Virus record (IMG/VR): IMGVR_UViG_3300040751_003707
DNA length: 64,000 nt
From: an uncultured virus (IMG/VR IMGVR_UViG_3300040751_003707)
Lineage: Duplodnaviria > Heunggongvirae > Uroviricota > Caudoviricetes
Direction: 5' to 3' (one strand)
Shown here: positions 14,591-41,572 of the stretch, in pieces
How the letters are laid out: each line of letters opens with the position of its first letter
Position numbering within the stretch: position 1 is the stretch's first letter
Notes under the pieces: model-generated
What the model saw: the letters and a program-made list of their open reading frames with translations, nothing else
What the model was told of the DNA's origin: nothing
Databases searched by the model: none
Translations under genes and position numbers: made by a program

Positions 14591-14998
14591 ATGAGTGCGT
14601 TAATTACTACGCTCGCTCCTATTATCAGTGAATTAGTAAAGAGAATCATCCCTGACGCAGACAGATCTGCTGAAATTGACAGAGAAGTAAGACTTTCTTT
14701 ACTTGAACATGCTGATAGTATTGAGGCTATCCGTGGTCAGATTATTCTTGCCGAAGCTAACTCAACAAGTTGGCTAACGTCTACTTGGAGACCATTACTT
14801 ATGATGGTAGTGGTCGCCATTATCGCAATGAATTACCTTGTATTTCCTATTCTTGGAATTGTATTTGGTGTTGAATTGCTTTTAGATTTACCAGAAGAGC
14901 TATGGACACTACTTACAGTCGGTGTTGGTGGTTATATTGTTGGTAGGTCTGGCGAAAGAATGGTCGAACATTACAGTCAAGGAGGGAGTAATACATAA
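14591..14998 (+). CDS. Holin (GTA-type 3TM holin family)
   Basis: SWLTSTWRPLL, hydrophobic segments, and LWTLLTVGVGGYIVGRS.EK-like motif. Confidence 0.8.
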   Translation: MSALITTLAPIISELVKRIIPDADRSAEIDREVRLSLLEHADSIEAIRGQIILAEANSTSWLTSTWRPLLMMVVVAIIAMNYLVFPILGIVFGVELLLDLPEELWTLLTVGVGGYIVGRSGERMVEHYSQGGSNT

Positions 14999-15471
14999 TG
15001 AAATTCTCATCACTTAAACTAACATCTATGTTTAAAAAACCTGAAAACAAAGTATACAAAATTGCAGAGAGCTATATCGGCACTCATGAAATTCCGGGTG
15101 AAGATGATAACCCAAAGATTGTTGAGTTCTTTGCAAAAGTTGGTCATTCTTGGGTTAAAGATGATGAAACCGCTTGGTGTGCAGCCTTTGTTGGTGCCTG
15201 TTTAGAAGAAGCAGGTTATAAATCAACTAAGAAGCTAAATGCAAGATCCTACCTAGAGTGGGGTGACGCCGTTATGCCAAATCAAGCTGAAAAAGGAGAT
15301 GTCATCATCTTTTGGAGGGAATCCCCACAGTCATGGAAAGGGCATGTGGCCTTCTTCCACAGCTATGACGCTAACGGGAACTTAAACGTTCTTGGAGGTA
15401 ATCAGAGCAATGCTGTTACGATCGAAACATACAAGAAAGGCAGACTTTTGGGCGTTAGACGACCAATCTAA
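14998..15471 (+). CDS. TIGR02594-type NlpC/P60/CHAP peptidoglycan hydrolase
   Basis: DDETAWCAAFVG, ARSYLEWG, GHVAF and LGGNQSNAV motifs. Confidence 0.88.
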   Translation: MKFSSLKLTSMFKKPENKVYKIAESYIGTHEIPGEDDNPKIVEFFAKVGHSWVKDDETAWCAAFVGACLEEAGYKSTKKLNARSYLEWGDAVMPNQAEKGDVIIFWRESPQSWKGHVAFFHSYDANGNLNVLGGNQSNAVTIETYKKGRLLGVRRPI

Positions 15472-15490
15472 AAATACTTCCGACTAATGA
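15470..15490 (+). promoter_or_regulatory. Putative phage-RNAP promoter, class B copy 1
   Basis: AAAAATACTTCCGACTAATGA; six intergenic copies, all on the + strand. Confidence 0.8.
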
Positions 15491-15532
15491 TAAGAAGACA
15501 GAGAATTACTCTCTGACAGTCTTCTACAGAGG

Positions 15533-15573
15533 ACAGCGGGGTGAATTATATCACTCTGCTGTTCCTTATTTTT
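15533..15573 (+). terminator. Hairpin / putative intrinsic terminator between the tandem promoters
   Basis: ACAGCGGGGTGA-attata-TCACTCTGCTGT followed by TCCTTATTTTT. Confidence 0.55.
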
Positions 15574-15581: not shown

Positions 15582-15602
15582 AAAAATACTTCCGACTAAT
15601 GA
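15582..15602 (+). promoter_or_regulatory. Putative phage-RNAP promoter, class B copy 2 (upstream of portal)
   Basis: Exact AAAAATACTTCCGACTAATGA. Confidence 0.8.
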
Positions 15603-15722: not shown

Positions 15723-17306
15723 ATGGCTCAACTGATTAAAGCTGCTAAACCAACTAAAAAGTCTGTAGCTGACCCTAGTGATAGTTATCACTCATTAAAG
15801 CCTCTCTGGAAAAAAGCAAGAGCTGTACTACAAGGTGAGGATAATGCAAAAGCTCACGATGAATTCGTAAGAGATAAAGACAATCTTCTTATCCCTTTTT
15901 CTCCTTCTATGACTCAAGAACAATATGAGTTTTATAAGAAAGAAGCAGAACTTCCCGGATTAGTTGCTCAGTACTGTAAGGTGTTAATTACCTCACTTCT
16001 CAGGAAAAAGTCTCAGTTAACACTACCAGAAGACCTTCCTGAAGATGCTATAGATTGGATTGAAACTAACTTTACACTCGACGGTAGAGGTCTTTTTAAC
16101 TTTCTAGATACAGCGTTGTGGGAAGAACTACAAACATCCCGGTGTTGGGTTTATGTAGACTATCCTAATATCGCTATAGAAGAATGGGAAGCTATGTCTA
16201 CTGAGGATAAAGAGGTTGTGTCCCCTTATCCTGTTGTGATTAAAGCAGAAAATGTAATCAATTATCAAACAAGTATTCATCCAATTACACGAATAAAGTC
16301 TATCACAAGGTTTGTAACTCGTTATATTGTTGAAGAATATACTGATGTTGAAAACCCTTGGCACCCCGAATATCAAGATGTCGTAGCAGACCATTACCTT
16401 GATGAATCTGGTGGCCTTGTTATTGATTACTACAAAAGAGAATATCAAGCAGATAATGTAAAAATCTTAAATGGTGAAGTTTCTCGTGAGTTCTTAGACA
16501 GGCTCACTGAAGCTAAATTTGTTAAGTATGATACAGTTTATCCTACTATGTGGGGAGAGCGTGTCCCTAAGATTCCAGCATGGCCTTTAAACGGACAGAT
16601 TGAACCGATCGAACCAGTGTTAATGCCTCTAATTGACAGAGAGATTTCTCTTTATAATAAAATCTCAAGAAGAAACCACCTTCTATATGGTGCAGCTACT
16701 TATACTCCGATTGTAAAATCAGATATGTCTGATGATGAGTTTCAAGAGATTGTAAACGCTGGCCTTGGTACTTGGCTCAGGGTCCGTAAAGACGAAGATA
16801 TTTCTGTTTTACAAACACCCACAGCGGCTCTTTCTGATATGGACAGATCTATTAAAGAAACTGTTGAAGATATGGCTAAGATGGGTATTAGGATGTTATC
16901 CCCGGAACAAGCTGCTTCAGGTGTTGCTTTAGAAATCAGGAATGCATCTCAGACAGCTCAACTCGGGTCACTTAACGCTAAGATCTCCTCTACTATGAGA
17001 GAGATTATTGCATTTATGCTGAATTGGAAATACAACAGGTATTACACAGGAAACGATATTAACTTCCAGATGTCCGCAGACTTCTCACCGATTGTTGGTG
17101 GCGAGGGTTCAATGAGACTCGTTACAGAATGGTACAGAGAAGGGTTTATCCCTCGTTCTGTATTTCTCAATATTGCAAAATATAATGATTTCCTTCCTGC
17201 AGACTATGACGATGAATCAGCTATTGCTGAAATTCAGACAGACTCACTTGTCGCCGGGAGTCAACAAAACCAACCACAACTTGATGTTATGGAAACAGAA
17301 GCTTAA
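15723..17306 (+). CDS. Portal protein (DUF4055-like)
   Basis: 527 aa, first gene of the head module; CWVYVDYP motif and acidic C-terminus. Confidence 0.8.
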   Translation: MAQLIKAAKPTKKSVADPSDSYHSLKPLWKKARAVLQGEDNAKAHDEFVRDKDNLLIPFSPSMTQEQYEFYKKEAELPGLVAQYCKVLITSLLRKKSQLTLPEDLPEDAIDWIETNFTLDGRGLFNFLDTALWEELQTSRCWVYVDYPNIAIEEWEAMSTEDKEVVSPYPVVIKAENVINYQTSIHPITRIKSITRFVTRYIVEEYTDVENPWHPEYQDVVADHYLDESGGLVIDYYKREYQADNVKILNGEVSREFLDRLTEAKFVKYDTVYPTMWGERVPKIPAWPLNGQIEPIEPVLMPLIDREISLYNKISRRNHLLYGAATYTPIVKSDMSDDEFQEIVNAGLGTWLRVRKDEDISVLQTPTAALSDMDRSIKETVEDMAKMGIRMLSPEQAASGVALEIRNASQTAQLGSLNAKISSTMREIIAFMLNWKYNRYYTGNDINFQMSADFSPIVGGEGSMRLVTEWYREGFIPRSVFLNIAKYNDFLPADYDDESAIAEIQTDSLVAGSQQNQPQLDVMETEA

Positions 17307-17330: not shown

Positions 17331-20300
17331 ATGGCTATTAATGATGATATATACGACAGAATCGTAGACCATATGACAGACGTAAGGTTATATGAAGAGA
17401 GTGTTCAGGTTCAAAATAGACGGATTTTTTCTCGACATAGATCAAACCTAAGAGATCTTTTACGTGGCGATCTACGTGCAAACTTAGAAAGAGAAATGAG
17501 ACGGTTTTCAAGAGAACTTCAAGTTCATCAAGAAACTGCAATGAGAGAATTCTCTACTTCTCAGTTAGACTTTCATACAAGTAACTTAAACAAATCCGTT
17601 GGTTCTTTCTTTAATGTACAGAGACCAAGATCCAGAGAAATCCTTGCCCAAATAACCGGAAATGCTATTAGGGGTGATAACACTATCGCAGGCAATATTC
17701 AAAATATTTCTGCCGGTGAGCTTGTAAGAATCCAAAACAAGGTTAATCTCGGGTTATCAAGAGGAAGATCAAGAAATGACATTATTTCAGACGTATTATC
17801 AACAACTAAGCTATCTGAGCATCAGGCACGCACCCTTACTAGAACCGCTATTACAAGCACTCAGTCTACTGCCCTTATTAATGTAGTAGAAAGAAACAAA
17901 GATATTATCTCTGGCTACATGTTTACTGCCATCTTAGATGGTAAAACTAGCGCTATTTGTTCTTATCATAATGGTAAAGTATACGATGTCGATGATGCAA
18001 GGTTTAGACCTCCTCTGCATTGGAATTGTAGATCTACCTTAATTCCTGTAGTCAAATCTAAAGATCAGTTGCTTGAAACAGACTCTGCGAGGATTAAACG
18101 TAGAAATCTTAAGGAAACAGCGGATAATCAATTATCTGGTAGAACACCACCACAAGAATCTTTTGGTGAGTGGTTACGAAGACAATCAATGGCTATTCAA
18201 ACAAGAATTTTAGGTTCTGAAGAGAAAGCCAACTTATTCAGACTTGGTACTCTTAAATATGATGACTTTGTAAGTAAAACAGGCGAGCTTCTTTCTATTG
18301 CTGCTCTTAGACGAAGAGCTGCTGAAGTCACCGCACCGTACTTTGGTAAAGTAAATGTCACTGACAGAGATACAGTTATCAGGGCATCAAGACCTTCTTT
18401 TCTTATTAATAATCCATCTAGGAGAGATGAACTACTATCTATGTTTATCTCTGACTCTTTAGACTTTAATAAGACTTTATCTCTTACCGACTACAGAGGT
18501 ACTTCCCTCGTTGGTAAACAAGCATCAAGAAGGCGCTATGGTAACACCTTCGATGAAAGAAACCACAGTGAAGATCCCTTTACTGGTGAGATTACCAACA
18601 CTAATATTTATGCCCCTGATTTTAATTTGTTGCAAGAACGAATTGACTTTATGAGAGCGTCTAAAACCCTTACAAGAGACCAAAAGGACTTTATTGAGGA
18701 CTTTGCTAATAGACTTGAAGACCGTGTTTCAGTTAATCAACAAACAGTAATTGTTGAAAATCTCCGGGTTGTGTTTGAACGATATATGAGAGACAAAACC
18801 CCCTGGGATGATGTTGCATCTGTTTTACGTGCAGAAAACAGGTTTGCAGTTCAAAACACTTCAAGACTACTTGATACAAGATCTAGACAAAGATCTGAGG
18901 TGTTTGCAAGGTATATCACAGGAGAGGGTGGCAGACCACAAGCGCAGGTATTTGGTACTTATTATGATTTCGATGATCTTTCTTCACGTCTACTGAGAGA
19001 TCAAAGAATCTTAGATAGTTGGGAACAGAAAGAGGGCCGCAGGCTTGCAAGAAGGATTTTCTTATCCGGGAGATCCCCTATGAGAACTTACTTTGCAAGG
19101 TTCTTAGATCGATACCCAACTAAGAAAAAGATCGTTTCAAGACTTAATAAAGAGTTTCCAGTATTCTCTAAGGCTTATAATCTTTATAAAAAGTTAAACA
19201 AGAGAGAACCGTCTGATGCTTGGATTACAAAACAAATGGCTAAAATACGAGAAACATATCGTTTTATATTAGACTTTGAGTTTTTAAATATAAGAAAAAA
19301 GCCAAGTAGTAAAGTCTTTAATGAAAAGTCAATTAAGTCTTTATCAGGTATTATGAAATTAATTGCTGAAGGTAATTCAACAGATTATGACACTCTTGCT
19401 ATCAATATCGGTAAGAAGTTACACAGAGACCTTGGTCAGTTAACACCGTTTACTTCTTCAAGTCTAAGAGACTATCATGCAGAAGGTTCGAGGATTCTTG
19501 AATATCTCAGAGATAATAACATTATCAAAATTCAATTCAGAGGTGTTACAAGAAGAGGTGTGATCGATGTCGATACAGGCAGAGCCAGCGGAGGTTGGGG
19601 AGATACAATCTCAAGAGAAGTTATTGTTGTTGATAAACAAGTAAGGGAGCTTCAAGAGACTGCCAGAAGACTGTTTATAAGTAGAAGAATTGGTAATGTG
19701 AATGAAAGAGACCGTCTATACGTAAAGGCAGGTCATAAGACTTACTTTGATGCAAGAGGTAAGAACACAGGTATCCCAATTATTTCTCAAAGTAAATTTG
19801 CTGATTTTGATGCAAATCAAATTGACAGAGACTTTGCTAATATGCTTAATCACGTCATGAATGTGCAATACAGAGTTGACGACGAGTTTGTTGATTTCAT
19901 GGATTATCTACTCAGGTTCAGAGACCCTCGTGGTAATTCTAAGTACTATGACTCTATTAACGAGTTTAGACAAGAGATTATCAGCAGAGGCGAAGGTGGC
20001 TATGGTCTGGTTTCAACTGCTAAATATCATAGACAAAGAGGGCAACCTTTCAGAACTAACGCTTATATTGACTCTCGTGGACGAGTTTATCACAGAGGTT
20101 ACTTAACACCTACTGGTGGTGAAGTGGCAAGACCGTTTCTTAATTCTAACAGAGCTTATTCTCTCTCGCCAGAAGCACTAGATGAGCTTCAGATTCAAAT
20201 GGGTGCTCTTATCGGACCCGGCACAGAAGCCTTAACTCAAGCTGGTAGAAGAGCAATCTTCCAAAGGAATAGAGAAAAGATTATTGAGCTTGGTGAGATC

Positions 20301-21128
20301 ATGCTTTCAACAACTCAACGAGACAGAAGAATTCGTGAATTCCTTGAACACCCATTGATTAAAGGACTTGAAGGGAAAGAAGTCCCTAAGATGGCTAGAA
20401 TGGCTCTTGAGTATGCCAGAATCAATCGTCATGTTGACGGAGATTTTTCTTCTGGTTATAACAGAACCTTTTTTGGTGAAGACCACACCCCTCAAAATGT
20501 ATTAGAAGTACAAAGAAGAGTTGAGGAATTTAGACCTCAAGTGGTTTATCATGAATTTTGGGAAGAACCTGAAACAATTGCTTGGGCAAGAAAAAACGGG
20601 TTTGAGCTAAGGCCCGGTGATTTAAGTTATGCACAAAAGGAAAGATTAATCGAAAGATATGGTGGACAAACAGAGCAGTTTCACAGAGACAGAGAAGCAT
20701 TCATGCTTAGACAGTATAACAATGCGGACCCTAATGTAAGAAACGCATTTGTTGTTGGAAATGACCACGCTTTTGACAGAGGTTCTGTAATTGCTCAGAA
20801 TCCAAATATCAGAAGAATTTCTGCTAATGGCCAAACATATCCTTCTAGGAATGACAAGTTATCTACCTATCAGACAAGACTTATGATCGAGAATGATGCG
20901 TCATCTTCTGGTGCTCAGATCATTGGACTATCAACAAGAGATAGAAGTATTTCCGAGGCAAGCAATGTACTAGCCACTGATAGGAAAAACAGGCTTTATG
21001 ACCTTGTTGCTATGGATACTGTAAATGATCCAGAGTTTATTAACATTCGTGCGTTAAGAGATGCAAACCTAACTTGGGAAGACTTAGCTAAGGCAGCTAA
21101 AGCACAAAACATGGTGCATTTCTACGGT
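17331..21128 (+). CDS. Exon 1 of a MuF (SPP1 gp7-like) minor head protein fused to a T7-like RNA polymerase
   Basis: MuF motifs TRTA, TAILDGKTSAIC, PPLHWNCRSTLIP. RNAP motifs IDSRGRVY, motif A ENDASSSGAQ, and motif B up to KAQNMVHFYG. Confidence 0.88.
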
Positions 21129-21966
21129 AGTTTCCCCAAAACGTGCCGTAGTAAAACCTCGTGAATTCGGTGGAACTCTCCCTGAGACAATACCGAGCGA
21201 AGCCCTTAAAAAGGGGAACGTGTAACGACTATCCGAAAGGAGTACACCTAAATGTCAGGTGGAAGCGCGAGGATACACAAAAGTGTATAAGATATAGTCT
21301 GAACTGCATGGCGACATGCAGATACTTATAAAAGGAACCAAAATGAACTACAAATACCATTATGATGAACTCATAAGAAATTATGGTAAAAAAGAGAAGC
21401 CTATCGGTGTTTATACTGAAGGTCATCATGTTGTACCAAAATTTATGGGCGGCTCTGATGAGAACGATAATATCGTTTATCTTACTGCTAAGGAACACTA
21501 CATTGCTCATTTTTTATTATGGAAAATATACCGCAATACAGAAATGACGTATGCATTCAGGCTTATGAATGCTAATAGAGGTATTCTAGGTAGCTCGACT
21601 TTTGAGAGGCTACGAAAGGAGTATTCTACTAAATCAAGTGAGTTGCTTGCAGGAAGAAAAAACACAGACGAACAGATGCGTAAACAGAATGATGCGATTA
21701 AATCTTATTATCGCAGAATATGTGCAAAGGGAAAACCAAGACTAAAAGGTGTATGGACCGATGCATCAAGAGCGGCCCAATCTGAACGGATGAAGAAAGA
21801 ACACCATCTAGCTAAAGTTGTTATAGTAGATGGTCAAGAATTTCATTCACTAAGAGCAGCTGCAAGACATTTTGAAGTATCTCACAGAACCGTTAAAAGA
21901 TGGTTTTCGTCTGGTAGGGCCTTTTATAAGTAGGTAGGTATGACTAACCTATTTAACAAAAACTTG
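21129..21966 (+). mobile_element. Group I intron (838 nt, IA-like) with embedded homing endonuclease
   Basis: P1 CTACGGT/GCCGTAG with U.G at the splice site; P3 CCTCGTG/CGCGAGG; P7 GACTAT/ATAGTC with AAGATATAGTCT; P9 CTGCATG/CATGCAG; terminal G at 21966; P10 TTCCCCA/TGGGGAA; splicing restores the frame. Confidence 0.9.
21343..21933 (+). CDS. Intron-encoded HNH homing endonuclease (T4 Mob-like)
   Basis: AAAGGA RBS; EGHHVVPKFMGGSD...NIVYLTAKEHYIAH; C-terminal HTH FHSLRAAARHF. Confidence 0.88.
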   Translation: MNYKYHYDELIRNYGKKEKPIGVYTEGHHVVPKFMGGSDENDNIVYLTAKEHYIAHFLLWKIYRNTEMTYAFRLMNANRGILGSSTFERLRKEYSTKSSELLAGRKNTDEQMRKQNDAIKSYYRRICAKGKPRLKGVWTDASRAAQSERMKKEHHLAKVVIVDGQEFHSLRAAARHFEVSHRTVKRWFSSGRAFYK

Positions 21967-22947
21967 GCTGGGGAAGCCACCAAAACAATGAACGTAACTA
22001 ACAAACTATCAAAAGTTCTTGAAGAGTTAGACTTCTTAGTTGTTACTAAGGACAATCTCAGCACTAATTTAAGAATTATTGATGGAAGAATTAAGTTAGC
22101 TGATAGAGCAGGTGCTACTACCTTGTCTCATGAGCTGACACAATTTAGAAGAGAGCTTGTTGAATCTATAAACAGGAATGAACCTGTTGGTAGGATGCTA
22201 TTAAAACAAGCTGAAGAAATACACCCCGATGTTGCAGAGTTTGTAAGAACCCTGACCAATACCAGACGTGGATTAATTGGACCTCAAGAGTTTGCACAAA
22301 TTTCTAGAATCATGTCAAGAAACTTATCTGAAAGAGCACCTATTGCTAACAATTTCGTTAGCTTTTGGAAACAAGCTGGTAGATTGTTTGTAACAGAAAC
22401 CAAGCAAGTTGACATACCTTGGGTTACTTTCGATGGTAAAGTAATGACACAAAGATACAGACCAAGACTTCAAGAAAGAATTGAATTTAGAGACGCTATT
22501 ACTGGTCGTAGAATTCAGAACATCTATGAATCTGCTGCAGAAGATGCAAGGCTATTAGGTAAGTCATCTATTGGTGATGCAGGGATTGGTCTTGGTGTAA
22601 ATGGAAACCACAGCAACGATGCAACTATCGTTAGAAGGTTTCATTTATGGGGAAGAAGAAATAACGTGGATACAGCAACAATTCACGATGCGTTTTTTAC
22701 TAACATCTCAGAAGCTAACCGAGCAAGAGATGCGTTAAGAGAAATTTACGCAGATGCTGTTGAAAGCCAAACTGTTCTAAACACTCTTAAAGAGATGCGG
22801 CGCAGAGGGCTAAGCAGACAAAGTTATAACAGATTAGTAAGACTTGCCAGAGAGCAAGGGCTTATTGATCCTGATAATGCAATTACAAGAGACGATGTTT
22901 TATCACCCCTTACTGAAGGTTTGGATTGGTATGGTATTGGACCTTAA
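21967..22947 (+). CDS. Exon 2 of the MuF-RNAP fusion
   Basis: Continues motif B (AGEATK); IPWVTFDG, GVNGNHSNDA and motif C TIHDAF. Confidence 0.88.
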   Translation, partial: AGEATKTMNVTNKLSKVLEELDFLVVTKDNLSTNLRIIDGRIKLADRAGATTLSHELTQFRRELVESINRNEPVGRMLLKQAEEIHPDVAEFVRTLTNTRRGLIGPQEFAQISRIMSRNLSERAPIANNFVSFWKQAGRLFVTETKQVDIPWVTFDGKVMTQRYRPRLQERIEFRDAITGRRIQNIYESAAEDARLLGKSSIGDAGIGLGVNGNHSNDATIVRRFHLWGRRNNVDTATIHDAFFTNISEANRARDALREIYADAVESQTVLNTLKEMRRRGLSRQSYNRLVRLAREQGLIDPDNAITRDDVLSPLTEGLDWYGIGP

Positions 22948-23025: not shown

Positions 23026-23733
23026 ATGAGTGATGATAAACAAAATAATGTAAACGATGATGATAAGGTGATTGAAGAGGATACTCAAAATCAAGATGAT
23101 GATCTAGATGATAATCAACAAAAACCTGATGATTCTAAACCAGATGACAATTCTCTAGAAGATGAGCTAGAGAAAAAAGTTCAAGAACGACTAGCCAAAA
23201 TGAAAGACAACATGGACCGCATGGCTAAAGCTCGTGATGAGGCTCTTAAAAAGGCAGCCGAACTAGAAGAACAACAAAAGAAAGCTAAGATGGAGCAGCT
23301 TGAAAAAGAAGGTAAGCTACAAGAGCTTGCTGAAATGAAAGCTGCAGAACTAGAAGCTAAGCTCAAGGTAATTGAGGAAGAGAACGTCAAGCTTAAGCGC
23401 GACCAAGTTCTTCATTCTAAACTAGCTACACTTGAATTTAGAAATGAACGCAGCAAAGATATGGCTTACCGTGATATTGTAGATCAACTTACCCAAGATG
23501 ATAATGGTAATTGGGTTCATTCCTCTGGTAAATCTATCTCTGATTTTGTTGAAAGTTACTCAAAAGAAGAAGATAACTCTTTCTTATTTAAAACCAAATC
23601 AAATTCTGGTGCAGGTAAATCCGGTGCCTTCAAAAATTCTGATACAACACAAACAAAGAAAATTACTGAAATGAGCACTCAAGAGATTTTAAAAGCGGCT
23701 CGTGAAGGCAAATTAGGTAATTTTAAATATTAA
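23026..23733 (+). CDS. Capsid scaffolding protein
   Basis: Acidic N-terminus, coiled coil, C-terminal FLFK..SGAG; directly upstream of the capsid gene. Confidence 0.8.
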   Translation: MSDDKQNNVNDDDKVIEEDTQNQDDDLDDNQQKPDDSKPDDNSLEDELEKKVQERLAKMKDNMDRMAKARDEALKKAAELEEQQKKAKMEQLEKEGKLQELAEMKAAELEAKLKVIEEENVKLKRDQVLHSKLATLEFRNERSKDMAYRDIVDQLTQDDNGNWVHSSGKSISDFVESYSKEEDNSFLFKTKSNSGAGKSGAFKNSDTTQTKKITEMSTQEILKAAREGKLGNFKY

Positions 23734-23762: not shown

Positions 23763-24881
23763 ATGACTATTACAAATACTGACTTTCAGAACATTGCTAT
23801 CGCTATTTCTGCCTACGCAGACGAAGCGTATACTTTCGAAAAGAAGCTTAACTCAACTGGTATTGTTGGGACTCGTGATGACATTACCGCAGATGGTGAA
23901 TCATTTATTGGTCAGTTCCGTTGGTACAAGCCACTAGTTGCAAACATTAACGTTGCATCTCTTTCAAGCGCAAATGATGGTACCTACACTGATATTGCAA
24001 CCGATGTAGCGAACTACATTAAAACCGTTCGTACCTTCGGTGCACAACAGGTAAACCTACAAGAAGTCGTGTCAAAAGAAGACGGTCTCATGAAGATCGC
24101 AAACGACTTTGCTGAAGTACGCGCCCAAGACGAGCATAACGCTCTTCTACAAGTTCTAAAAGGTGTTGCACAACACGAAGTCGCCCTTGGCGATGCTGGT
24201 GACGCAGGTAACGGCGGTATCGTAGCTTTCGACACTGATGCTGATGCATCTGCTACTGGTTTCTTCGTTGATGTTAACGCAGCCGGTGAATTCGGTTCTG
24301 CTGCTACTGATTCAACCGATGAGCGTCGTCTATTTGACTCCTCTGCTGCTGGTGCTGCTCGTGGTGAGCGTCTCTTCAAAGCTATTGGTATGGCATTTAA
24401 AGACTATGAACCTGACTATATGTACCTTGTCACTTCTCCTGAGATGCTTGCAGAACTACGCGCTGCTAACCTAATTGACCAGACTGTTATCACCGATGGC
24501 AACCTAGAATTCCAGACCATCTTCGGTGGTAAATTCCGCCTAATCATGACCCGCGCTAACCAGATGATTTCTGGCACCGCAACTGGTGATCTTAATGCAC
24601 GTTCAGCTAAGTGTACCTTCGTTGTTAAGCCTGAATCTGTTACCTTCGCACCTGTTGGTGTTCCAACTCCTGTTGAAGTAGACCGTAATGCAGCCTCTTA
24701 TACCGGCGGTGGTTCAACTAACGTTTGGTATCGTTACGGCTTTATCATGCATCCAATGGGTTATGACTGGGCTGGTGCAACTAATGCCTTTGCAACTAAC
24801 ACTCAGTTCGGTGCTGCTGCAAGCTGGGATCGTAAGATGGATAGTCTAAACCTTGGTATTCTACCAATCTTCCACGCTTAA
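23763..24881 (+). CDS. Major capsid protein
   Basis: 372 aa after the scaffold; strong codon bias; MHPMGYDW...W.R C-terminal motif. Confidence 0.85.
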   Translation: MTITNTDFQNIAIAISAYADEAYTFEKKLNSTGIVGTRDDITADGESFIGQFRWYKPLVANINVASLSSANDGTYTDIATDVANYIKTVRTFGAQQVNLQEVVSKEDGLMKIANDFAEVRAQDEHNALLQVLKGVAQHEVALGDAGDAGNGGIVAFDTDADASATGFFVDVNAAGEFGSAATDSTDERRLFDSSAAGAARGERLFKAIGMAFKDYEPDYMYLVTSPEMLAELRAANLIDQTVITDGNLEFQTIFGGKFRLIMTRANQMISGTATGDLNARSAKCTFVVKPESVTFAPVGVPTPVEVDRNAASYTGGGSTNVWYRYGFIMHPMGYDWAGATNAFATNTQFGAAASWDRKMDSLNLGILPIFHA

Positions 24882-28061: not shown

Positions 28062-28080
28062 ATTAATATTGGAGGAATTT

Positions 28081-31000
28081 ATGGCGGTAAATATTAGAGT
28101 AAACGCTGATACTTCTCAGGCTAGGAGAGATCTTAATAAGTTAGAAACATCAATAGTAAATATTGACAAACGTACAAAAACAGTTTCTAAAAATTTAACG
28201 AGACTTGCAGTTGGTATTTCTACAGCCTTCGGATCTGCTGTTGCTGTAAGAAGTATTAACCAAGCAACGGATAGTCTTACATCATTACAAAACAGAATTG
28301 CGCTAGTAACCGGAAGAACAGAAGCACTATCTAACTCTCTAGATGAACTTTATGCTATTGCTAGAGGTGCGGGCGGTTCAATTGATGGTGCGGTTGAAAC
28401 ATTTAATAGGTTTGGTCTTGCCCTTAGCAATGCTGGCGCTAACGTAGAAGATATTTTAAGAGCTACTGAATCTGTTCAAAGGTCTATTGCTATTTCTGGT
28501 GGTTCCGCTCAATCTGCAAGTGCAGCTATCTTCCAGCTAGGTCAAGGGCTTGCTTCAGGGACACTCAGAGGACAAGAACTTAATTCTGTATTAGAACAAG
28601 CACCAAGGCTTGCCCAAGCAATCTCTGACAGTTTAGGGGTAGGTATTGGCGATCTAAGAGGTATTGCAGAACAAGGTGGTCTGACTACAGACATTGTTTT
28701 TGGGGCCTTGTTAGATCAAGCAGAAACATTAAACGAAGAGTTTCAAATTCTTGAAAGAACGTCATCACAAGCTTTTGTTGTTTTCAGAGATACCCTTAAT
28801 AGACTAACAGGTGACATCAGCAGAACTGTTGGTTTTACAAACTTGTTTACCTCTACGTTTGATTTCCTAACAAACGAAATTGTCAACAACAGTGATGTAA
28901 TTGAGGTTGCTCTTTACAGCGCACTAAGCAATATCTCAAGCACATTTAGAGACCTCCGCCTTGTTGGTCAAGAACTATATTTACTATTTGAACAAATTTC
29001 AGGTATTGTCTTAAGTTCATTTTTACCTAGCTTTACAAGCTCTGAAGGCTTTGTCTCAAAACTAGCAAAAGGCTTCTTAAGCCTAAACAGACAAATTTTA
29101 AGAGCTAGACTTTATATTGCTGAGTTATTTAATGAAACTCAAACATTAAGCACAGCTTTTAAGATTTTCAGATCAGAGTCTCTTTTAGAGGTAGCAGATG
29201 TCCTTTATGATCTTTCTCTTGCAATAGATGAATTTGGTTTAAAAGACACAATACTTTATGAATTAGCTGCAACATTTGTTGATTTAGAAAATACAATTAT
29301 CTCTTTCTATAACACTTTACGATTAAATGACTCGTTTGATGATTTAATTGTTGCAGCGTACTTCATGAAAAGAGATGTAACCAACTACATTGAAGGGTTG
29401 GTTGACGACGCTAATAATAGTTTTGAAAATATCAAGTCAAACATATCTAATATATTTGCAGGAATCTCCTCAACAGTAACCCGGTATTTATCCCCTGTAG
29501 TTGATTTTATAACTTCTGCTTTAGATGTCATTGAAAGAAAGTTCTTCTGGGTTTATGACCAAGTAATTGGAAACTCTTGGTGGACAGACACTATGGAGAT
29601 GACTTATTTTTATGCTGTTGAGTACCTTTCAAAAACAGAAGAATACGTCTCAGATTTCACTGAAAACGTTGTAGATAAGTTTAGAACACTCTATAGGCAG
29701 ATAAATACTTTTGTAAACAACTTATCACTTGAGTCTATTCAAGACACCGCATTAGAGTTTAGTGTTGATCTTTCTTCAAGAGCACAAGCTTTCTTTGAAA
29801 ATCCGCTAGAAAACGTTAATAACGCGCTAGACTCTGTGTTAGAAAATTTTGCTAAACCACTAGCAGCCCTATTTTCAGACATATACAAAGAGCTTTCTGG
29901 TCTTTATCCAGCAATTACAAGTATTCTTACACTGGCATTTGGTGCAAGTTTTATCGGGCTAATTAGCTCAAGTTTCTCTAAAGGCCTTTTATTTGTTGCA
30001 AGAGGCGGCCTTATTGCTGTTATTGCATCAACTTTTATTAGTAACTTTGGTTCTGAATTCTTCAGCTCAGGAATCATTTCTGAATTTTCAAAAGCTGTTG
30101 GTTCTGCTTTTGGCTCCATTATTGGTGCTGTTCTTTCTAATATACCTGAAATTACAAGAGCGCTGATTCAAGTAGCTGTTGGTTTTGCTCAAGGTCTTGC
30201 TGAAGGTATCAGTGGAATCCCTGGCTTGATCCTGAAAGGTCTCGTTGGAAGTGGCTCATTAACTAATGGATTAACTTCCTTTGTAGATAGCATCTTTGGT
30301 ACAATCATTGGTTCAATATCACTTGCATTAACCGCTTATGCATTTAATTTTGCAGGGTTTAGAGGTCTTACTAATAATCTGATAAAGGCAAGACAGAAGG
30401 CGTTTGATAAGGCCGCAGAAAACGGAAATGCCCCTAGTATATCTTTCCTTGAAAGTGTTTTAATCGGTCGTGATGGCGGCAGAAGAGTTGTTGCAAAATA
30501 TGCAGGTATCTTCTTAGGATTAAACGCAGTTTTAGGTACTGTCATTGAGGATCCGGTCTTAAGAGATGTTATTGCGGCAGGTGGTGTAGTTGCTTCTGCT
30601 ATTTTCTCACAAAATTCAAATGCAGTTATACAAGCAGGTTTTAACGCAATAACTCAGATAAGAACACAAATAATTTCGTTATTTGCTACCTTACAGGGTC
30701 AAAGTTTATCTCAAATTGCTACAAATTTACTAACTGCGGTCTCTAGTGTTGCTACATCAATTTCAACAATGGCCACTACAGCTTATGCTCAGTTCGCTGG
30801 TATGGTTGCAGCTGCAAGAGCAAGTGCTGTTGGTATTTTTGCTTCTTTTAGCACAGCTTTCAACGGCATCACCCCTGTTATAACTGCTGCCCTGTCAAGA
30901 GCAAGAGCTTTAATAACTGCTTTTGCAGCGTCCGCAAGAGCTAAGTTTCTTGGCATTAGTCTTGCAATAGCTTTAGCTTTTTCAGCAAGTTCTGCCAATG

Positions 31001-34000
31001 CCTCTGTCGGTGAAGTTGAGGCGTCTACGGATTCACTTATTGCTAAATTAGAGCGTTTCATAGTTTCCCCTATTGGCATGTTAGGTCTTGTTCTTGTTGG
31101 TAATCTTGGTTTTACCAAATTACTAGCGGGTATAAGCGCAGTTAGAGCAGCAGTTGTTTCTACAATTGCCGCAGGTGCAATTGGTAATACAGCAAGAGCT
31201 GGATTATTATCTTTAGCGATTTTTGGTGAGGGTTCTATTCTTGCAGGTATTGGCGCGGTATTAGCTGGTATTGGCAAAGCTATTCTGGCTTTTATTGGGT
31301 CTTGGACTGCAATTATTATTGCAGCAGTAGCTGTATTTGGTCTAATTGGTATTGCTGTATTTGGCGAGGGTGACTCATTCGGTGAGAAACTTGGCAACGC
31401 TTATGATGCAGTAAGAAAATTCTTTGGCTTTTCTTCAAGAGAGGCATCACGGTTAAGATCAAATATCGCGGATGCTATTGGAGAAATCAGAGAAATCGAT
31501 GATATCGAGATTAATTTGATTGGGACTCTACAAGGTGTTAATCTTGAAGGGGCAGATCCTGAAAGAGCTGAAAGAGCTATTTTCTTAGCGAATAGAACAA
31601 ATAGCATCTTAGAAGAAGCTAATCGTGCTTTCGAAGAAGATGGCCGTATTTCATCAGCACAAAGAAGAAGAATTGAAAGAGCAGTATTACTTACTAGAGA
31701 CGCTATCGAAGATCTCGACACTACAGAAGATGGCGCGGGTAACGTAAGAACTCAAGCTGGTCTTTTAACCCCACTACTTTCAAGTGTACTTAGCGGTGGA
31801 GTAGGGGATTTCCGAGATGCTGTTGCTAATCAAAATAGAAGATTAACCAGAAATGCATTTTCCGCTTTAGAAGAAATACAAACAGCAGTAGACCAAGGGC
31901 TAGATGTTCAGTTTTTACTTGATGACTTCTTAACAGACTTTGGATCACAATTGAGTGGAACCCAATACGGTGCTGCATTTATTGATCTTATTACTGCTAT
32001 TTCTGAAAATGCTTCTCAAGATCTAGAAATTGCCCCAGATACGCTATCCAGCATTAGTACTGATCTTCTTGATATCGAACAACAGATCGGACAAGGTGGA
32101 ACAGCGTTAAGAGATGCTTTTACAGCTGCAGCAGAAGAGATTCGAACCGGAACTGAACAAGCTACAGTAGATAGAAGAATTGTTATCAGAGAAAATGAAG
32201 AAGAAGCTTTTAGAAATGCTCTTGCTGATATTGATTCTATTTTTGGTAATGAATATGATTTTGGTCAGTTTGATGACTCTTTTATAACAAGACTAGGTGT
32301 TAATGACTTAAGAGCAGTTACTGATTATCTAATAGAACAAGTTGAGTCAATTACAGAAGAGTTAGAAGGACTTGATGCACAGGGTCGTGGAAGTGAAGCA
32401 CGAGTAGCTATAATTGAAAGTCTCCAAACAGGATTAGACAATTATCTTGACGATTGGTTAACGACAGCGGGTCTTCAAGATCCTGTTGAAAATGAGGTGG
32501 CTAGCCGATTAGATGTTCTAAACGACAGACTTTCTGAAATTGGTGTTCAAACACTAGACTTGTTACCTTCTGGTGATACTCTATTTAATGATTTATCAGG
32601 TGTTGCACAAAGTCAATACACAATTATTGACGATATCGTTGGAAGAATTGAAAGTGCAAGAGCTTCCTTAACCGACGGTACTGATAGAACTAACGCTGAA
32701 ATAAATCAAATCATAACTAATATTGCAAGATTATCAAACGAACTTGAGTTAACAATTGCTACTCAAAATGCTCAGACAAGAGCAACTGTTGATAGAATTG
32801 GAGCTATACAGGCAGCTCTTTCTCAAGTTGATGATCCTGTAGATTTAGATACTGTATTAGCGTTTAGCCCTTCCAGAATTAATGAAATTCTTACCTTAAG
32901 TGCTTCTATTGATGTCCTTACACTGTCACTAACTAAACTTGCAGCAGCAGGAACTGGTGATGCAGGTATTCAAAGAGCATTACAAGTTGGTATTGATAAC
33001 GCCAGAGCAAGATTAGATGAACTTCTCGGTGGTGGTGGAGTACCCGCTACAGGTGGTGGAGGTGGCGGTGGAGAAACTCAAACCGCTATCGAACAACTAA
33101 CTTCTTCACTTTCTGAACTTGGATTTACTCTAGACACACTAGATATTGCCGGGTTTAACTTAGAAACACTTAACTCATTAAGCTCTGCAGCAGAATCTTA
33201 TCTTGAGGCTCAAGAAGCTGTAACAGAGTCTGCTTTTGAAGAAGTTGAAGCACGGAGACAAGCTCTTGAAACACTTAATCAATCAAGAGAACAAGTTGCA
33301 AACATACTTGCTGAAAGCACTTTTGGTGGATTAAGAGCAGCGTTTGAAGGGTTAGGTTCATCTCTTGATGTATCTACGCTACTTTCATTTAATGAAGGCA
33401 CAATTCAATCAGCTCTTGAAAATGCACTACGTATTGTAGAAATTGAGTCTCAGATAAATAGCTTAACAGTAGATCAAATTGATCTTGCAAGAGAGCTAAA
33501 TGCTGAGTTAATGATGCGTAGAAGTCTTGAAGAGAACTTGTATCAAAACGCTATCAACAACACAGAAGGGGTAAGAGAGTCTTTCAAAAGCAATATCTCA
33601 GATGTGCTAAAAGGCGCTAAAACACTTCAGGAAGCGTTTGAAGGTATTCTAGATGACATCTCATCAAGAATTATTGACACTGTTGTTGATTCTTTTGTTG
33701 ATGCTTTCTTCGAAGCTTCAGGTTTGAATGACCTATTTACTAATCTGTTTGCAGGGTTATTCAATACAGGTCAGTCTGTAGGCTCTAGACTAGGGGAGTC
33801 TATTGGTAACTCAATGACATCTGGTCTTGAGAACAGTCTCGGTGATGGTGGGGGCTTCTTGTCTGGTATAACCGAGTTCTTCGGCAGCTTAATCCAAGGC
33901 ATTGGCGACTTCATCGGTGGTCTTTTTGGCGGCGGCGGAGGTGGAGGCTTCTTTAGCTTCTTCAGTAGCTTCGGCACTGGCTTCCTTGGCTTAAATGAAG

Positions 34001-34278: not shown

Positions 34279-34584
34279 ATGAAAAAGTGGAACAAGCTTT
34301 TCAGATTGAAAAATGGACAACTAGTATGGAGAGAATCCCGTGGCAGAGTTGCTGCGGGTTCTCCTGCTGGTACAAATCATGGTGATGGATATAAAACAGT
34401 CCGTATAAATGGTAAAGCACATTACGTACACCGAATTGTAAAAGAAATGTCAACTGGCAAAAGAGTCAATGGTGAAGTAGATCACAGAGATAGAAACAGA
34501 TCTAATAATAAACCGGGAAATCTCCGCGTAACAAACAGGTCTGGTAATAACAAAAATAGACGAGCATGGTCTCGTAAAAAGTAA
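34279..34584 (+). CDS. HNH endonuclease
   Basis: YVHRIV...EVDHRDRNRSNN...NLR motif. Confidence 0.85.
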   Translation: MKKWNKLFRLKNGQLVWRESRGRVAAGSPAGTNHGDGYKTVRINGKAHYVHRIVKEMSTGKRVNGEVDHRDRNRSNNKPGNLRVTNRSGNNKNRRAWSRKK

Positions 34585-34589
34585 CTATA

Positions 34590-34616
34590 GGGCGTCCCTT
34601 TTGGGGCGTCCTTTTT
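34590..34616 (+). terminator. Intrinsic terminator ending the virion module
   Basis: GGGCGTCCC-TTTT-GGGGCGTCC followed by TTTTT. Confidence 0.8.
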
Positions 34617-34632: not shown

Positions 34633-34722
34633 AAAACTGTATAAAAAAGTGAGAAAATTGATGCATCTATAATGATACAATCATGTATCAGTCAGCAAAT
34701 ATGGAGGACACCATGCTGAACA
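34633..34722 (+). repeat. 90-bp class A repeat copy 1 (promoter-like motif, hairpin, RBS and start codon)
   Basis: Near-identical to 35123-35212; contains GCATCTATAATGA, TGATACA/TGTATCA and GGAGG-ATG. Confidence 0.85.
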
Positions 34723-35065: not shown

Positions 35066-35116
35066 ACACCCTGAGCATGGTGTAAAACTGCTCAATATCA
35101 ATTGTACGGGCTTTGT
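35066..35116 (+). repeat. 51-bp repeat copy 1 containing an H-type pseudoknot
   Basis: ACACC-C-TGAGCA-T-GGTGT-AAAAC-TGCTCA; repeated at 35710-35760. Confidence 0.8.
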
Positions 35117-35122: not shown

Positions 35123-35212
35123 AAAACTGCATCAAAAAGTGAGAAAATTGATGCATCTATAATGATACAATCATGTATCAGTCAGCAACAATGGAGGACA
35201 CCATGCTGAACA
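35123..35212 (+). repeat. 90-bp class A repeat copy 2
   Basis: Offset 490 bp from copy 1. Confidence 0.85.
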
Positions 35213-38546: not shown

Positions 38547-38729
38547 ATGGAAGATGTCGAAACAAGGGTAGAAGTTGTACTAAATAGTGGAGTTACAGAA
38601 AAATTTTGGTATACTCATATGGTTGAAGATTCTGGGTTTTTAAAATTCTTTACAAAAAAAGGAACTGAATACTTGTTTCAAAAAGATTGTGTAATGATGA
38701 TGGTTGTTTACCATACGCGAGATAACTGA
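38547..38729 (+). CDS. Hypothetical protein
   Basis: GAGGAG RBS before ATG (MEDVETRV). Confidence 0.5.
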   Translation: MEDVETRVEVVLNSGVTEKFWYTHMVEDSGFLKFFTKKGTEYLFQKDCVMMMVVYHTRDN

Positions 38730-38778
38730 GTAAATCCTCGCATCTATAACCCTAACAGCACTGTAAGGAGAAAACAAC

Positions 38779-39294: not shown

Positions 39295-39309
39295 GCTATA
39301 CATAGATTA

Positions 39310-39379: not shown

Positions 39380-41572
39380 ATGACAAAAACTCCGTTAGAA
39401 GAGTTAACAGAAGACTTAAAACATAGACAAACTTATTTGTTTTCTCAGTCGGGTAGTGTGGATAAACGTAAAAAGGCTTGGAAAATTGCTAATATAGAAG
39501 CACTAGATATCATAGAGCTTACTTATGGTCATGTCCTTACCGGTATTGAAAAGAGAACTTCTCTTGCCACTGTTGTTGCAAATATTGGTAAATCTATAAA
39601 CAGAAAGTATAAACTATCCGCAGACCCTGTCGAAGAAGCGCATATCGGCTGGTTTGTTATGTTATCTTACTTCGAAATGAACTATATCAGTTATGTGGCA
39701 AAACACCTGAAGAAAGCTAATGGTCGTAAATCTAAATACCCAACCTATCAGATAGTTGTAAAAAACGTTGACGCTATTAATCAGATATTAACACTTGTAA
39801 ACAAAGATAAGGTAGATCTCTTTCCAAACTCAGAACCGCCGGGTGACTGGACAGAGGGTTTTACTCATAAGAAAACAGGTTATCCTTTAATCAAGAATGC
39901 ACCTAAAGAAACAATTGATCTTCTGAAATATGAAAATCTGGATTATGTTAAATCGGCCTTGAATAAGCTAAACAACACCGGCTGGCGGATAAACAAAGAT
40001 GTATTCTTAGTGTTTAAAAAGTGTATGTACAATGAGAAAACACCTTTCAAGTTTCACAAGGAAATTGATCCTGTTAAAAAAGCTTCTTTGTTAATTGAAG
40101 TAAACGCAATTGTGGGTATTGCAGAAAGGAATCTCAACAATGCATTCTATCATCTCTATAACCTTGATTTTCGCGGTAGAATTTATCCAAATACTGCCTT
40201 TCTACATGAACAATCCTCGGACAATGCTAAAGGCTTACTTCTCTTAGACCAGCCTGTATTGCTAGGAGAACAAGGTACTTACTGGTTATTTGTACACACT
40301 GCAAACGTACTTGGTCAAGACAAATTAGAACTAGATGAAAGGGTTAACTATGTAGAAAGTATTATAGATGACATAATCGGTTATGCAGAAGATCCCCTTG
40401 TAAACACAGGGTGGATGGATGCAGATAAACCTTTTAGTTTTCTTGCAGCTTGTTATGAAATTTACAAACTATTAGGATGGTGTAATGCAGGATACCCGCC
40501 AGAGGAATTCCCCTCTTGCTTACCAATCTATATCGACGGGAGTAACAACGGGGTTCAACACCTTGTTGCAATGTCCAAAGATCATGAAGTTGCCCCGTTG
40601 GTTAACTTGGTTCAGAGCAAACTTCCCGGCGATGTTTACATGTATATCGCTGAACACGTTATGGAGAAAATTGAAAAACGTTCTAAACTGTTAAAACAAG
40701 AGGATGTTGATAAATTTGAACCGTTGTTTAATGAATACGTTTCACTGCTGAGGGAGATTGAAAAATGGCCTGAAAAATCAGAAAAGAAAAAACTTGCAAA
40801 AGCAGCAATGCTAGAGTTCAAGAACCATAACTATGATCTCCGAGAGAAACTATTCCCTATCTATTGGAATAAAATCAAAGATAAAAAGGTATGGAGAAAG
40901 ATACTTAAAAGAAATGTTATGACATTGGCTTACGGAGGTACTCGTCAAGGCATGGGTGCTCAGATTGTTGATGACACAAGGGATCTCAGCGAGTATCTAA
41001 GAGACAAAGAAGTAAAGTGGGGCTATATGCTGGGTAGCCTTGCTTATGATACATGCTATGAAAGACTCCCCGGACCAGCCAGCATGTTAGAAATGTTTCA
41101 GAGCCTTGCTATCAGAGAAAACAAAGAAAACAGACACCTTGAATACCGAGTGCCAGTTACTAACTTCCCCTTCCGGCATAACTACCGAAAGCCACTTGCA
41201 AAGGAGATAAGCTTTTACTACGGTGAAGAGCGTATCCGGGTTACACTGAGTATCTGGCAAGAAGCAACACTTGACAAGAACAGTCAAAAAACAGGTGCTG
41301 CACCTAACGTAGTTCATAGCCTTGATGCTGCTCATTTGACAAGTGTAATACACGACACAGACTATCCTGTAACAGTTGTTCATGACTCTTTCGGGTGTCA
41401 TGCTGGAAACATGGATAAACTGTTTTATGATGTACGGAAGAAGTTTGTAGAACTCTACGAACAAGAACCACTAGAGTTCATCATGAAACAACTTAACTCA
41501 GAAGACTTGATTCCAAAGAAAGGGCTACTAGATGTCAAAACAGTACTTGAATCAGATTTCGCATTTGCATAA
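39380..41572 (+). CDS. T7-like single-subunit DNA-directed RNA polymerase
   Basis: LDFRGRIY, motif A IDGSNNGVQH, motif B RKILKRNVMTLAYG, PNVVHSLDA, motif C VHDSF, C-terminal FAFA. Confidence 0.96.
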   Translation: MTKTPLEELTEDLKHRQTYLFSQSGSVDKRKKAWKIANIEALDIIELTYGHVLTGIEKRTSLATVVANIGKSINRKYKLSADPVEEAHIGWFVMLSYFEMNYISYVAKHLKKANGRKSKYPTYQIVVKNVDAINQILTLVNKDKVDLFPNSEPPGDWTEGFTHKKTGYPLIKNAPKETIDLLKYENLDYVKSALNKLNNTGWRINKDVFLVFKKCMYNEKTPFKFHKEIDPVKKASLLIEVNAIVGIAERNLNNAFYHLYNLDFRGRIYPNTAFLHEQSSDNAKGLLLLDQPVLLGEQGTYWLFVHTANVLGQDKLELDERVNYVESIIDDIIGYAEDPLVNTGWMDADKPFSFLAACYEIYKLLGWCNAGYPPEEFPSCLPIYIDGSNNGVQHLVAMSKDHEVAPLVNLVQSKLPGDVYMYIAEHVMEKIEKRSKLLKQEDVDKFEPLFNEYVSLLREIEKWPEKSEKKKLAKAAMLEFKNHNYDLREKLFPIYWNKIKDKKVWRKILKRNVMTLAYGGTRQGMGAQIVDDTRDLSEYLRDKEVKWGYMLGSLAYDTCYERLPGPASMLEMFQSLAIRENKENRHLEYRVPVTNFPFRHNYRKPLAKEISFYYGEERIRVTLSIWQEATLDKNSQKTGAAPNVVHSLDAAHLTSVIHDTDYPVTVVHDSFGCHAGNMDKLFYDVRKKFVELYEQEPLEFIMKQLNSEDLIPKKGLLDVKTVLESDFAFA

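Follow-up and report, generated by a model that had tools for sequence, protein, structure and literature searches.

Why does a head gene of a virus carry an RNA polymerase (RNAP), and could that polymerase be delivered to the next cell? The question is raised by a gene at positions 17331 to 22947 of a 64,000-nt stretch of DNA from an uncultured Caudoviricetes virus (IMG/VR record IMGVR_UViG_3300040751_003707), referred to here as the window. An earlier note on this DNA, made from its letters alone, had proposed that the gene encodes a MuF minor head protein fused to a complete T7-like RNAP and that the product is a candidate virion RNAP delivered from the capsid. We followed up this proposal by computational analysis. 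All genes of the window lie on the + strand, as do the motifs, terminator, and intron described below.

We found that the gene extends over three open reading frames (ORFs), at 17331-21164 (1277 aa), 21316-21933 (205 aa), and 21940-22947 (335 aa). Exon 1 (17331..21128) encodes aa 1 to 1266, and exon 2 (21967..22947) encodes aa 1267 to 1592. The spliced product of 1592 aa (1266 + 326) is an open frame, as the earlier note had it. Within exon 1 are the MuF domain (aa ~1-340; Pfam core, 17730-18044), a conserved middle region, DSRGRVY (20070-20090), motif A (20889-20918), and the start of motif B. Exon 2 holds the end of motif B, a region equivalent to the specificity loop of T7 RNAP, NGNHSNDA (22600-22623), motif C (TIHDAF, 22678-22695), and the C-terminus, DWYGIGP. 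Every motif that had been quoted is present in the spliced protein, both catalytic aspartates included. In the MuF part these are TAILDGKTSAIC (aa 199-210) and PPLHWNCRSTLIP (aa 227-239); in the polymerase part they are DSRGRVY (914-920), ENDASSSGAQ of motif A (1187-1196), KAAKAQNMVHFYG|AG of motif B, which spans the junction (1254-1268), NGNHSNDA (1478-1485), and TIHDAF (1504-1509). The position of the gene was also as described: the portal gene (15723..17306; PHROG portal, E = 1.1e-46) lies directly 5′, and the scaffold (23026-23733) and major head protein (23763-24881) genes of the head module lie 3′.

Profile searches identified both halves of the protein. Pfam Phage_Mu_F (PF04233) matched aa 134 to 238 with an E value of 1.7e-14 and 54.9 bits, against a cut-off of 29.6, and the first ORF matched PHROG "head morphogenesis" at E = 2.2e-54. 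For exon 2 alone, the match to Pfam RNA_pol (PF00940) was borderline (E = 6.3e-5; 22.4 bits versus a cut-off of 22). The PHROG "RNA polymerase" family phrog_414 matched the end of exon 1 (aa 1178-1275; E = 2.4e-13) and the exon-2 ORF (E = 5.4e-10). As a single sequence, aa 155 to 284 of the exon-2 ORF matched T7 RNAP chains in the Protein Data Bank (PDB) at T7 residues 721 to 846 (E = 7e-4). When all PDB chains were searched with a family profile built from a 39-member alignment, T7 RNAP alone (five distinct sequences) was found at E ≤ 0.01. It matched at 1e-5 in four collinear stretches, and the alignment is collinear with T7 residues 412-464, 527-576, and 722-841. At the same threshold, this profile detected no sequence relationship to the polymerase domain of the N4 virion RNAP. 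Features from the ESM Atlas led to RNA_pol clusters at 0.89, which we regard as a lead only. We concluded that the gene almost certainly encodes a spliced MuF-RNAP fusion.

The two exons are separated by a group I intron (21129..21966; 838 nt), which scored 67.2 bits with Rfam Intron_gpI (RF00028) against a gathering score of 50. Within it lies an ORF for an HNH homing endonuclease (21316..21933, 205 aa; PHROG homing endonuclease, E = 2e-40; weak NUMOD1 match). In the P1 helix, exon bases UACGGU (21123-21128) pair with GCCGUA (21145-21150), with a U-G pair at the splice site. The last base of the 5′ exon is U, and the intron ends in AACTTG, its last base being G (21966). The junction FYG|AG is gap-free against all five of the five uninterrupted homologues. 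IMG/VR holds 458 stretches with relatives of exon 2; in the best 80 of these we found no match 5′ of residue 10 of the exon-2 ORF, except in the identical contig L002. Public metatranscriptome runs contain DNA of the window, and we compared three RNA runs (X3, X4, and X6) and one DNA run (X2) as a control. In X3, a 2088-nt contig joins 21128 to 21967 with flanks of 990 and 1098 nt and one differing letter; in X4, a contig makes the same joint with 39 nt on its shorter flank. The exact 838-nt skip was therefore seen in contigs of two of the three RNA runs, with the caveat that DNA may be present in RNA libraries. X6 showed no joint, and its cover was patchy, which gives no evidence either way. 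The DNA run showed no joint either, and a 1222-nt contig passes through the intron. We concluded that the intron is real and that it is spliced.

A search of databases for the MuF and RNA_pol architecture, which the earlier note had proposed as a check, turned up an abundant family, with the cultured roseophages DSS3_VP1 and DSS3_PM1 (Naomviridae) in it. These two are also the nearest phage records to the window. A word-index search scored 7999 candidates and returned 265 proteins at E ≤ 1e-3; among the 120 matches listed, most are 1450 to 1600 aa long and have both PF04233 and PF00940. Phage_Mu_F was found in 32 of 32 diverse relatives and RNA_pol in 30 of them (E ≤ 1e-3); by the curated cut-off of RNA_pol, 28 scored above, 2 scored below, and 2 had no match. 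We also ran an exhaustive phmmer search with residues 340 to 1266 against 1.84 billion representatives, which gave 101 clusters at E ≤ 1e-3. The full-length matches begin at about residue 350 of the matched protein, and the shorter ones look like fragments. No ordinary T7-like RNAP was among these matches. By this comparison, the fused polymerase is thus a separate, deep lineage that is met behind MuF alone, apart from the fragment-like matches. In DSS3_VP1 and at 27 IMG/VR loci, the gene immediately 5′ of the fusion encodes a portal homologue. As far as these sequences go, the MuF-RNAP fusion is family-wide, with hundreds of metagenomic relatives, and it always follows the portal gene.

Is the polymerase complete, and would it be active? 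That it is a complete T7-like RNAP could be upheld only in part. The palm and fingers motifs (DxRGRxY, A, B, C, the His and Asp of NGNHSNDA, and the C-terminus) are in place, and the stretch that separates MuF from DxRGRxY (aa ~340-910) is unmatched in Pfam and among PDB sequences. We found only chance-level matches when aa 340 to 1030 and a 141-aa internal module were compared with Pfam at E ≤ 5, and neither P0001 nor the MuF part matched PDB sequences at E ≤ 1. The RPOL_N domain was not detected in the fusion protein with Pfam. Since the middle region is unmatched, "complete" is unproven, and the catalytic core alone is supported. The likeness to T7 RNAP is very weak, and a profile-profile comparison is not significant, which would fit a catalytically dead module that serves the minor head protein as a structural or DNA-binding part. 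We regard such a dead module as highly improbable on two grounds. First, in 39 aligned relatives (46 to 73% identical to the first), DxRGRxY, the Asp of motif A, the Lys, Tyr, and Gly of motif B, the His and Asp of NGNHSNDA, the His-Asp of motif C, and a C-terminal YG.G are all invariant, so both catalytic aspartates are kept. Second, motif B is interrupted by a self-splicing intron, and this is the type of site that homing introns favor in essential, active genes.

When the fusion protein is made, and with what, bears on its destination. We found that the fusion gene lies in the late structural block, behind two tandem promoter-like motifs (class 1, described below), and that no strong terminator precedes it. 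Co-production of a polymerase with head proteins is easiest to understand if the enzyme departs in the particle. The amino acid composition sets the protein among virion proteins as well. Its only cysteines, residues 210 and 233, are both in MuF, and the remaining ~1250 aa contain none; at the mean cysteine frequency of the window, the chance of this is about 4e-5. No cysteine follows residue 345 in 38 of the 39 relatives. The tape measure protein (28069-34272), at 2067 aa, is likewise free of cysteine. The free RNAP of the window, a second and separate enzyme, has 6 (5 to 12 in 26 relatives), and the DNA polymerase, primase-helicase, and ribonucleotide reductase have 8 to 12.

Late expression with the head genes also fits a polymerase that is never delivered. 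Such an enzyme could have a late role in the producing cell (for example, late transcription or the coupling of transcription to packaging at the portal), or its polymerase half could be cleaved off, before the head matures or while it does so, leaving MuF alone in the capsid; the polymerase half is so far only a presumed component of the particle. We found, however, no recognizable prohead protease among the ORFs between the portal and major head protein genes, and proposed promoters for the free RNAP already precede the late genes. The cysteine-free polymerase part also groups with virion proteins and apart from the cytoplasmic enzymes. In addition, the fusion is kept in all 32 diverse relatives, and every full-length phmmer match has its start near the same residue, about 350. 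Together these points make it unlikely that the polymerase stays behind.

We then looked at what a delivered polymerase might read. Two classes of promoter-like motif were found in the window. The class-2 motif, GTGAGAAAA-N5-GCATCTATAAT, is followed by a hairpin (34649..34690; hairpin TGATACA-ATCA-TGTATCA at 34673-34690). It comes right after a strong terminator-like hairpin (34589..34612) that closes the late structural block. A second, identical copy lies at 35139-35180, a degenerate copy with 2 mismatches lies at 38726..38749, about 630 nt 5′ of the free RNAP gene, and a weaker copy with 3 mismatches lies at 53736-53759. Four sites in the window compare with 0.04 expected, and 0 of 100 shuffles reached 4. 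The exact and bipartite forms are above chance; GCATCTATAA alone at up to 1 mismatch is not (9 versus 5.5 expected), and AAAACTGNNTNAA occurs 3 times versus 0.7 expected.

The class-2 word is identical in the window, in the related genomes G002, G004, and G005, and in DSS3_VP1, apart from a single mismatch in one G004 copy. In these four relatives it always stands at the head of the early region, 5′ of the free RNAP gene. Searches that allowed up to 2 mismatches found it neither in pelagiphage Kolga nor in the distant EBPR siphovirus 1. IMG/VR contains 94 exact matches, and we examined 78 loci. A tape measure homologue ends just 5′ of the motif in 69 of these, and a free-RNAP homologue starts 1 to 4.2 kb 3′ in 43; one or both neighbors are present in 77 of the 78, and the last locus is on a contig with the free RNAP. 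Seven of the class-2 contigs, and DSS3_VP1, are also among the fusion-gene loci listed. A perfect hairpin follows within a few bases 3′ of 50 of 76 distinct class-2 sites (shuffled mean, 2.2; maximum, 6). Its stems vary in a compensatory way: TGATACA/TGTATCA, TGATATA/TATATCA, TGAACT/AGTTCA, and TGATAGA/TCTATCA.

The head of the early region is itself a tandem duplication of about 490 nt (34633-34722 and 35123-35212; 96% over 90 nt), both units of which include a small ORF besides a class-2 motif and a hairpin. A pair of 51-nt repeats, 96% identical, lies at 35066-35116 and 35710-35760.

Class 2 contains a perfect TATAAT, and host RNAP might read it by this element. In that case the fusion protein could be packaged and ejected mainly as a motor for genome entry or as a primer of replication. 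The arguments for packaging, namely, adjacency to the portal and the cysteine-free composition, apply to such a protein equally. There is precedent for both jobs: T7 genome entry is driven by transcription, and T7 and mitochondrial RNAPs prime replication. The sites themselves argue otherwise. By inspection, no TTGACA-like hexamer or other −35-like element lies at 16 to 18 nt from the class-2 sites, and sigma-70-type sites are not enriched but at chance level (20 versus 21.2 expected and 30 versus 32.2 expected). Moreover, neither GTGAGAAAA nor GCATC varies among phages that differ in GC content (38% and 48%) and share only 50 to 60% identity between their proteins. Words that stay invariant across such diverged phages are hard to explain by host sigma factors. 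We therefore consider a motor or primer with host-read class-2 sites to be a minor alternative, with roughly one chance in eight.

The class-1 motif, AAAAATACTTCCGACTAATGA (21 nt), occurs in tandem at 15470-15490 and 15582-15602, 5′ of the operon of portal, MuF-RNAP, and head genes, with a hairpin (15531-15564) between the copies. Further copies lie at 41792-41812, 48237-48257, 55977-55997, and 63896-63916. All six are on the + strand and intergenic, and they precede the head block and the replication blocks; the copy at 41792 is 220 nt 3′ of the free RNAP gene. The class-1 words vary between phages (ATACTTCCGACTAATGA, ATAGCTGACGTTAAAGA, and ATAGGGTGCGTTAAAGA), and the layout is kept. The equivalents are ATAGCTGACGTT(T)AAAGA in G002 and G004 and ATAGGGTGCGTTAAAGA in DSS3_VP1. 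In the relay proposed below, the class-1 word would co-vary with the free RNAP between phages. The two classes share the ending TAA(T/A)GA, suggesting that initiation regions of one kind are involved.

The free T7-like RNAP (39380..41572; 730 aa; PHROG phrog_414, E = 2.5e-122) is our proposed nonvirion enzyme. It has 408 relatives, is also present in DSS3_VP1 and DSS3_PM1, and is 48% identical to the annotated RNA polymerase of DSS3_VP1. Three of five long contigs of relatives carry it; the remaining two are only fragments, 52% and 69% complete. The fused and free enzymes are unrelated at the BLAST level (BLASTP, E = 0.24), which speaks against an origin of the fused enzyme by recent duplication of the free RNAP. 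Compared with DSS3_VP1, the fused enzyme is the better conserved of the two (58% versus 48% identity). In the region equivalent to the T7 specificity loop, conservation is 0.73 versus 0.735 for the remainder of the enzyme in the fusion family and 0.57 versus 0.70 in the free-RNAP family. As a weak indication, this would fit invariant promoters for the former and variable promoters for the latter. The free RNAP ends in FAFA, and the fused polymerase ends in DWYGIGP.

Directly 5′ of the free RNAP gene (39295-39379), a GC-rich hairpin, GCCCGCCCC-TTCG-GGGGCGGG, is followed by a run of 14 T's, and a run of 15 T's precedes the last endolysin gene (63131-63286). These may be attenuators or terminators for a phage polymerase to read through.

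The most economical reading of these findings, in which the assignment of enzymes to motifs is inferred, is a relay of the kind used by N4 or P23-45. According to this model, the MuF domain, which is of the portal-associated SPP1 gp7 type, would carry the attached polymerase into the procapsid, and the 1592-aa protein would be packaged and then ejected with the DNA. In the new cell, transcription by the fused polymerase would begin at the class-2 promoters, which are invariant in the family and stand where the early region (34.6-39.4 kb) opens. The early region expressed in this way would include the gene for the free T7-like RNAP. The free enzyme would then read the phage-specific class-1 promoters before the replication and structural genes, the fusion gene included. 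MuF as a tag for packaging and ejection, which the earlier note had offered as an inference, remains circumstantial and is strengthened by the late operon, the cysteine-free polymerase, the second RNAP, and the invariant early motif. On present evidence, we would give about two chances in three that the fusion protein is a delivered early transcriptase. The fuller proposal is more tentative, and we would put it at somewhat less than an even chance: that in Naomviridae-like marine siphoviruses a T7-type RNAP, tethered at the portal by MuF, is ejected along with a genome that may contain deoxyuridine, fires an invariant 25-nt promoter backed by a covarying hairpin, and hands over to a free RNAP with promoters that drift between phages, so that the phages are transcriptionally self-sufficient as soon as infection starts.

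Several points weigh against delivery of an early transcriptase. The likeness of the fusion protein to T7 RNAP is weak, with a best E value of 1e-5. The hhalign comparison of the fusion family with the free-RNAP family was collinear yet not significant (Prob 0.5, E = 0.12), and some 480 to 700 aa between MuF and the polymerase core match no Pfam family or PDB sequence. The TATAAT in class 2 makes a host promoter with a −10 element only possible. Low cysteine content is common to most structural proteins here and so argues for a virion protein, not specifically for an ejected one. The RNA-library contigs carry no timing, strand, or transcript ends. Pelagiphage Kolga combines a free RNAP with a 633-aa MuF protein that lacks a polymerase, and T7-type phages run early transcription with the host enzyme; the fused enzyme is thus not indispensable in principle. 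Finally, the main text of Rihtman 2021 (PMC8323127) contains no virion proteomics of family members.

How does this arrangement compare with known systems? Virion RNAPs are known in N4-like podoviruses, jumbo phages, and crAss-like phages. The proposed likeness to N4 gp50 and N4 RNAPII (Schitoviridae) lies in a single-polypeptide RNAP of the T7 superfamily that is made late, packaged, and injected for transcription from early promoters, with a second phage RNAP taking over afterward. In contrast to the window phage, N4 is a podovirus, and its gp50 of about 3500 aa has N- and C-terminal domains of its own and no MuF. The early promoters of N4 are hairpins, and a conserved hairpin accompanies 50 of 76 class-2 sites as well, although it lies 3′ of the conserved sequence and not within it. 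T7 RNAP (PDB 1CEZ, 1ARO, and others) shares DxRGRxY, motifs A, B, and C, the His/Asp element, and the specificity-loop region (T7 721-846) in collinear order. It differs in its local identity of only about 20% and in its length of 883 aa, versus the ~1250 aa that follow MuF here.

The Thermus siphovirus P23-45 offers a further parallel. Its virion RNAP, gp96, is fused to the tape measure protein, and gp64 is the nonvirion RNAP (PMC10770324). The phage uses two promoter motifs, and from its own motif the virion enzyme transcribes pre-early genes that include the gene for the nonvirion RNAP. The proposed likeness is thus that of a siphovirus with two motifs and with a virion RNAP carried out of the particle by the structural protein to which it is fused. 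The P23-45 enzymes are two-barrel (cell-type) RNAPs with the tape measure as carrier; here a putative T7-type right-hand polymerase has MuF as carrier. In the dU-DNA jumbo phages AR9 and PBS1 (dU, deoxyuridine), one RNAP is in the virion and a second is made, and the AR9 nonvirion RNAP recognizes deoxyuridine in its promoters (PMC9209446 and PMC7598289). These are multisubunit cell-type RNAPs in myoviruses of >200 kb, and dU-DNA in the window phage is only a possibility.

MuF proteins encoded beside the portal gene, with an enzymatic C-terminal extension proposed for delivery to the host, are described by Jamet 2017 (PMC5576092) and Iyer 2017 (PMC5512222). The fusion protein resembles SPP1 gp7 and other MuF proteins in its N-terminal MuF beside the portal and its C-terminal enzyme. 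The cargoes described there are toxins, RNases, ADP-ribosyltransferases (ARTs), RelA/SpoT, phosphoribosyltransferases (PRTases), kinases, and similar enzymes; here the cargo is an RNAP. The main text of Jamet 2017 has no instance of the word "polymerase", and an RNAP fusion is absent from the MuF passages of Iyer 2017 that we examined. In the literature full texts searched, with subscription journals and supplements outside the scope, we found no RNAP named as a MuF cargo or in a head gene of Naomviridae. Nor does "RNA polymerase" appear in the main texts of Rihtman 2021 (PMC8323127), a 2025 report on the dU pathway (PMC12697855), or a 2025 single-particle report (PMC12669031).

A T7-type RNAP as MuF cargo joins the themes of virion RNAPs and MuF carriers in an abundant marine phage family. 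If delivery is true, it would show by what simple, modular rule the capsid of a siphovirus can be loaded with a large enzyme, and it would give a reason why published annotations of Naomviridae show no early transcription strategy. It would also yield a compact, very divergent single-subunit RNAP with an invariant promoter candidate, possibly an orthogonal transcription tool, and a possible link of dU-DNA genomes to independence from the host polymerase. Should the phages be transcriptionally self-sufficient as well, no T7-type virion polymerase would have been known before from beyond the N4 group, the enzyme would be the first of the central dogma to serve as MuF cargo, and it would explain how the genome is read in a third, independent lineage of dU-DNA phages.

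The cultured dU-DNA member DSS3_VP1, which grows on Ruegeria pomeroyi, makes the idea testable at the bench now. Over 89% of exon 1, its orthologue and the fusion protein share 58% identity. DSS3_VP1 gp108 and the "minor head protein-like protein" of DSS3_PM1 share the position between portal and head genes and the Pfam pair of MuF and RNA_pol, and DSS3_VP1 also shares the free RNAP and the identical class-2 motif 3′ of the tape measure gene. Unlike the window gene, the DSS3_VP1 gene is a single one of 4392 nt (1463 aa), without the intron and without the 141-aa module, and it is annotated as "head morphogenesis" alone. Rihtman 2021 (PMC8323127) describes DSS3_VP1 and DSS3_PM1 as siphoviruses in morphotype in which dU replaces deoxythymidine (dT). 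For DSS3_VP1, a deaminase of the dCMP-deaminase family belongs to the dU pathway (PMC12697855). In the window we found a dCMP-deaminase-family ORF (54138-54545; Pfam, E = 2.7e-10), a MazG pyrophosphatase (47722-48036), and a nucleotide-kinase-like ORF (42795-43367), and no thymidylate synthase is named among the 59 window ORFs scanned. Given the dU-DNA of DSS3_VP1 and this set of nucleotide genes, the window phage may also carry dU in place of dT.

The 141-aa module (20436..20858; aa 1036-1176) is an insertion inside the polymerase that is missing from most relatives. It is found inside the polymerase of P0005 and P0087 as well. In P0006 to P0010, P0038, and L079 (6986-7423), it stands right after MuF (aa ~254-386) and is 56 to 61% identical. 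By its placement, it looks like a domain that moved within one protein. We considered an intein and set it aside, since the polymerase part has no cysteine, the module matches no family, and it is in frame elsewhere in relatives.

Megablast of the window against phage genomes gave stretches of 33 to 98 nt alone, all inside the intron, in 10 records. In the relatives P0051 to P0150, many called ORFs break off within motif B or shortly before it, at no fewer than five distinct places (after IYDLV, AKAAKA, KAQN, NMV, and FYG), and recurrent, intron-like read-through tails follow. In EBPR siphovirus 1, gp47, gp48, and gp49 (L082, 4049-9422) comprise both halves of the gene with an HNH gene between them. 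From these sequences, mobile introns seem to have targeted motif B repeatedly. Three more free-standing ORFs like HNH or homing endonuclease genes lie between conserved genes of the window, at 34279-34584, 48986-49471, and 56069-56428; Rfam found no intron at these three.

The genes of the window run in the order terminase, tail fibers, J-like protein, holin, endolysin, portal, fusion gene, scaffold, major head protein, adaptors, the 2067-aa tape measure protein, small early-type ORFs (34.6-39.3 kb), the free RNAP, and genes for replication and nucleotide metabolism. Two adjacent tRNA genes lie at 56518-56597 and 56606-56677. Three genes of the cell-wall hydrolase or endolysin type are present, at 14998-15471, 38147-38545, and 63287-63883, and one of them is inside the early region (Pfam Hydrolase_2, E = 1.9e-22).

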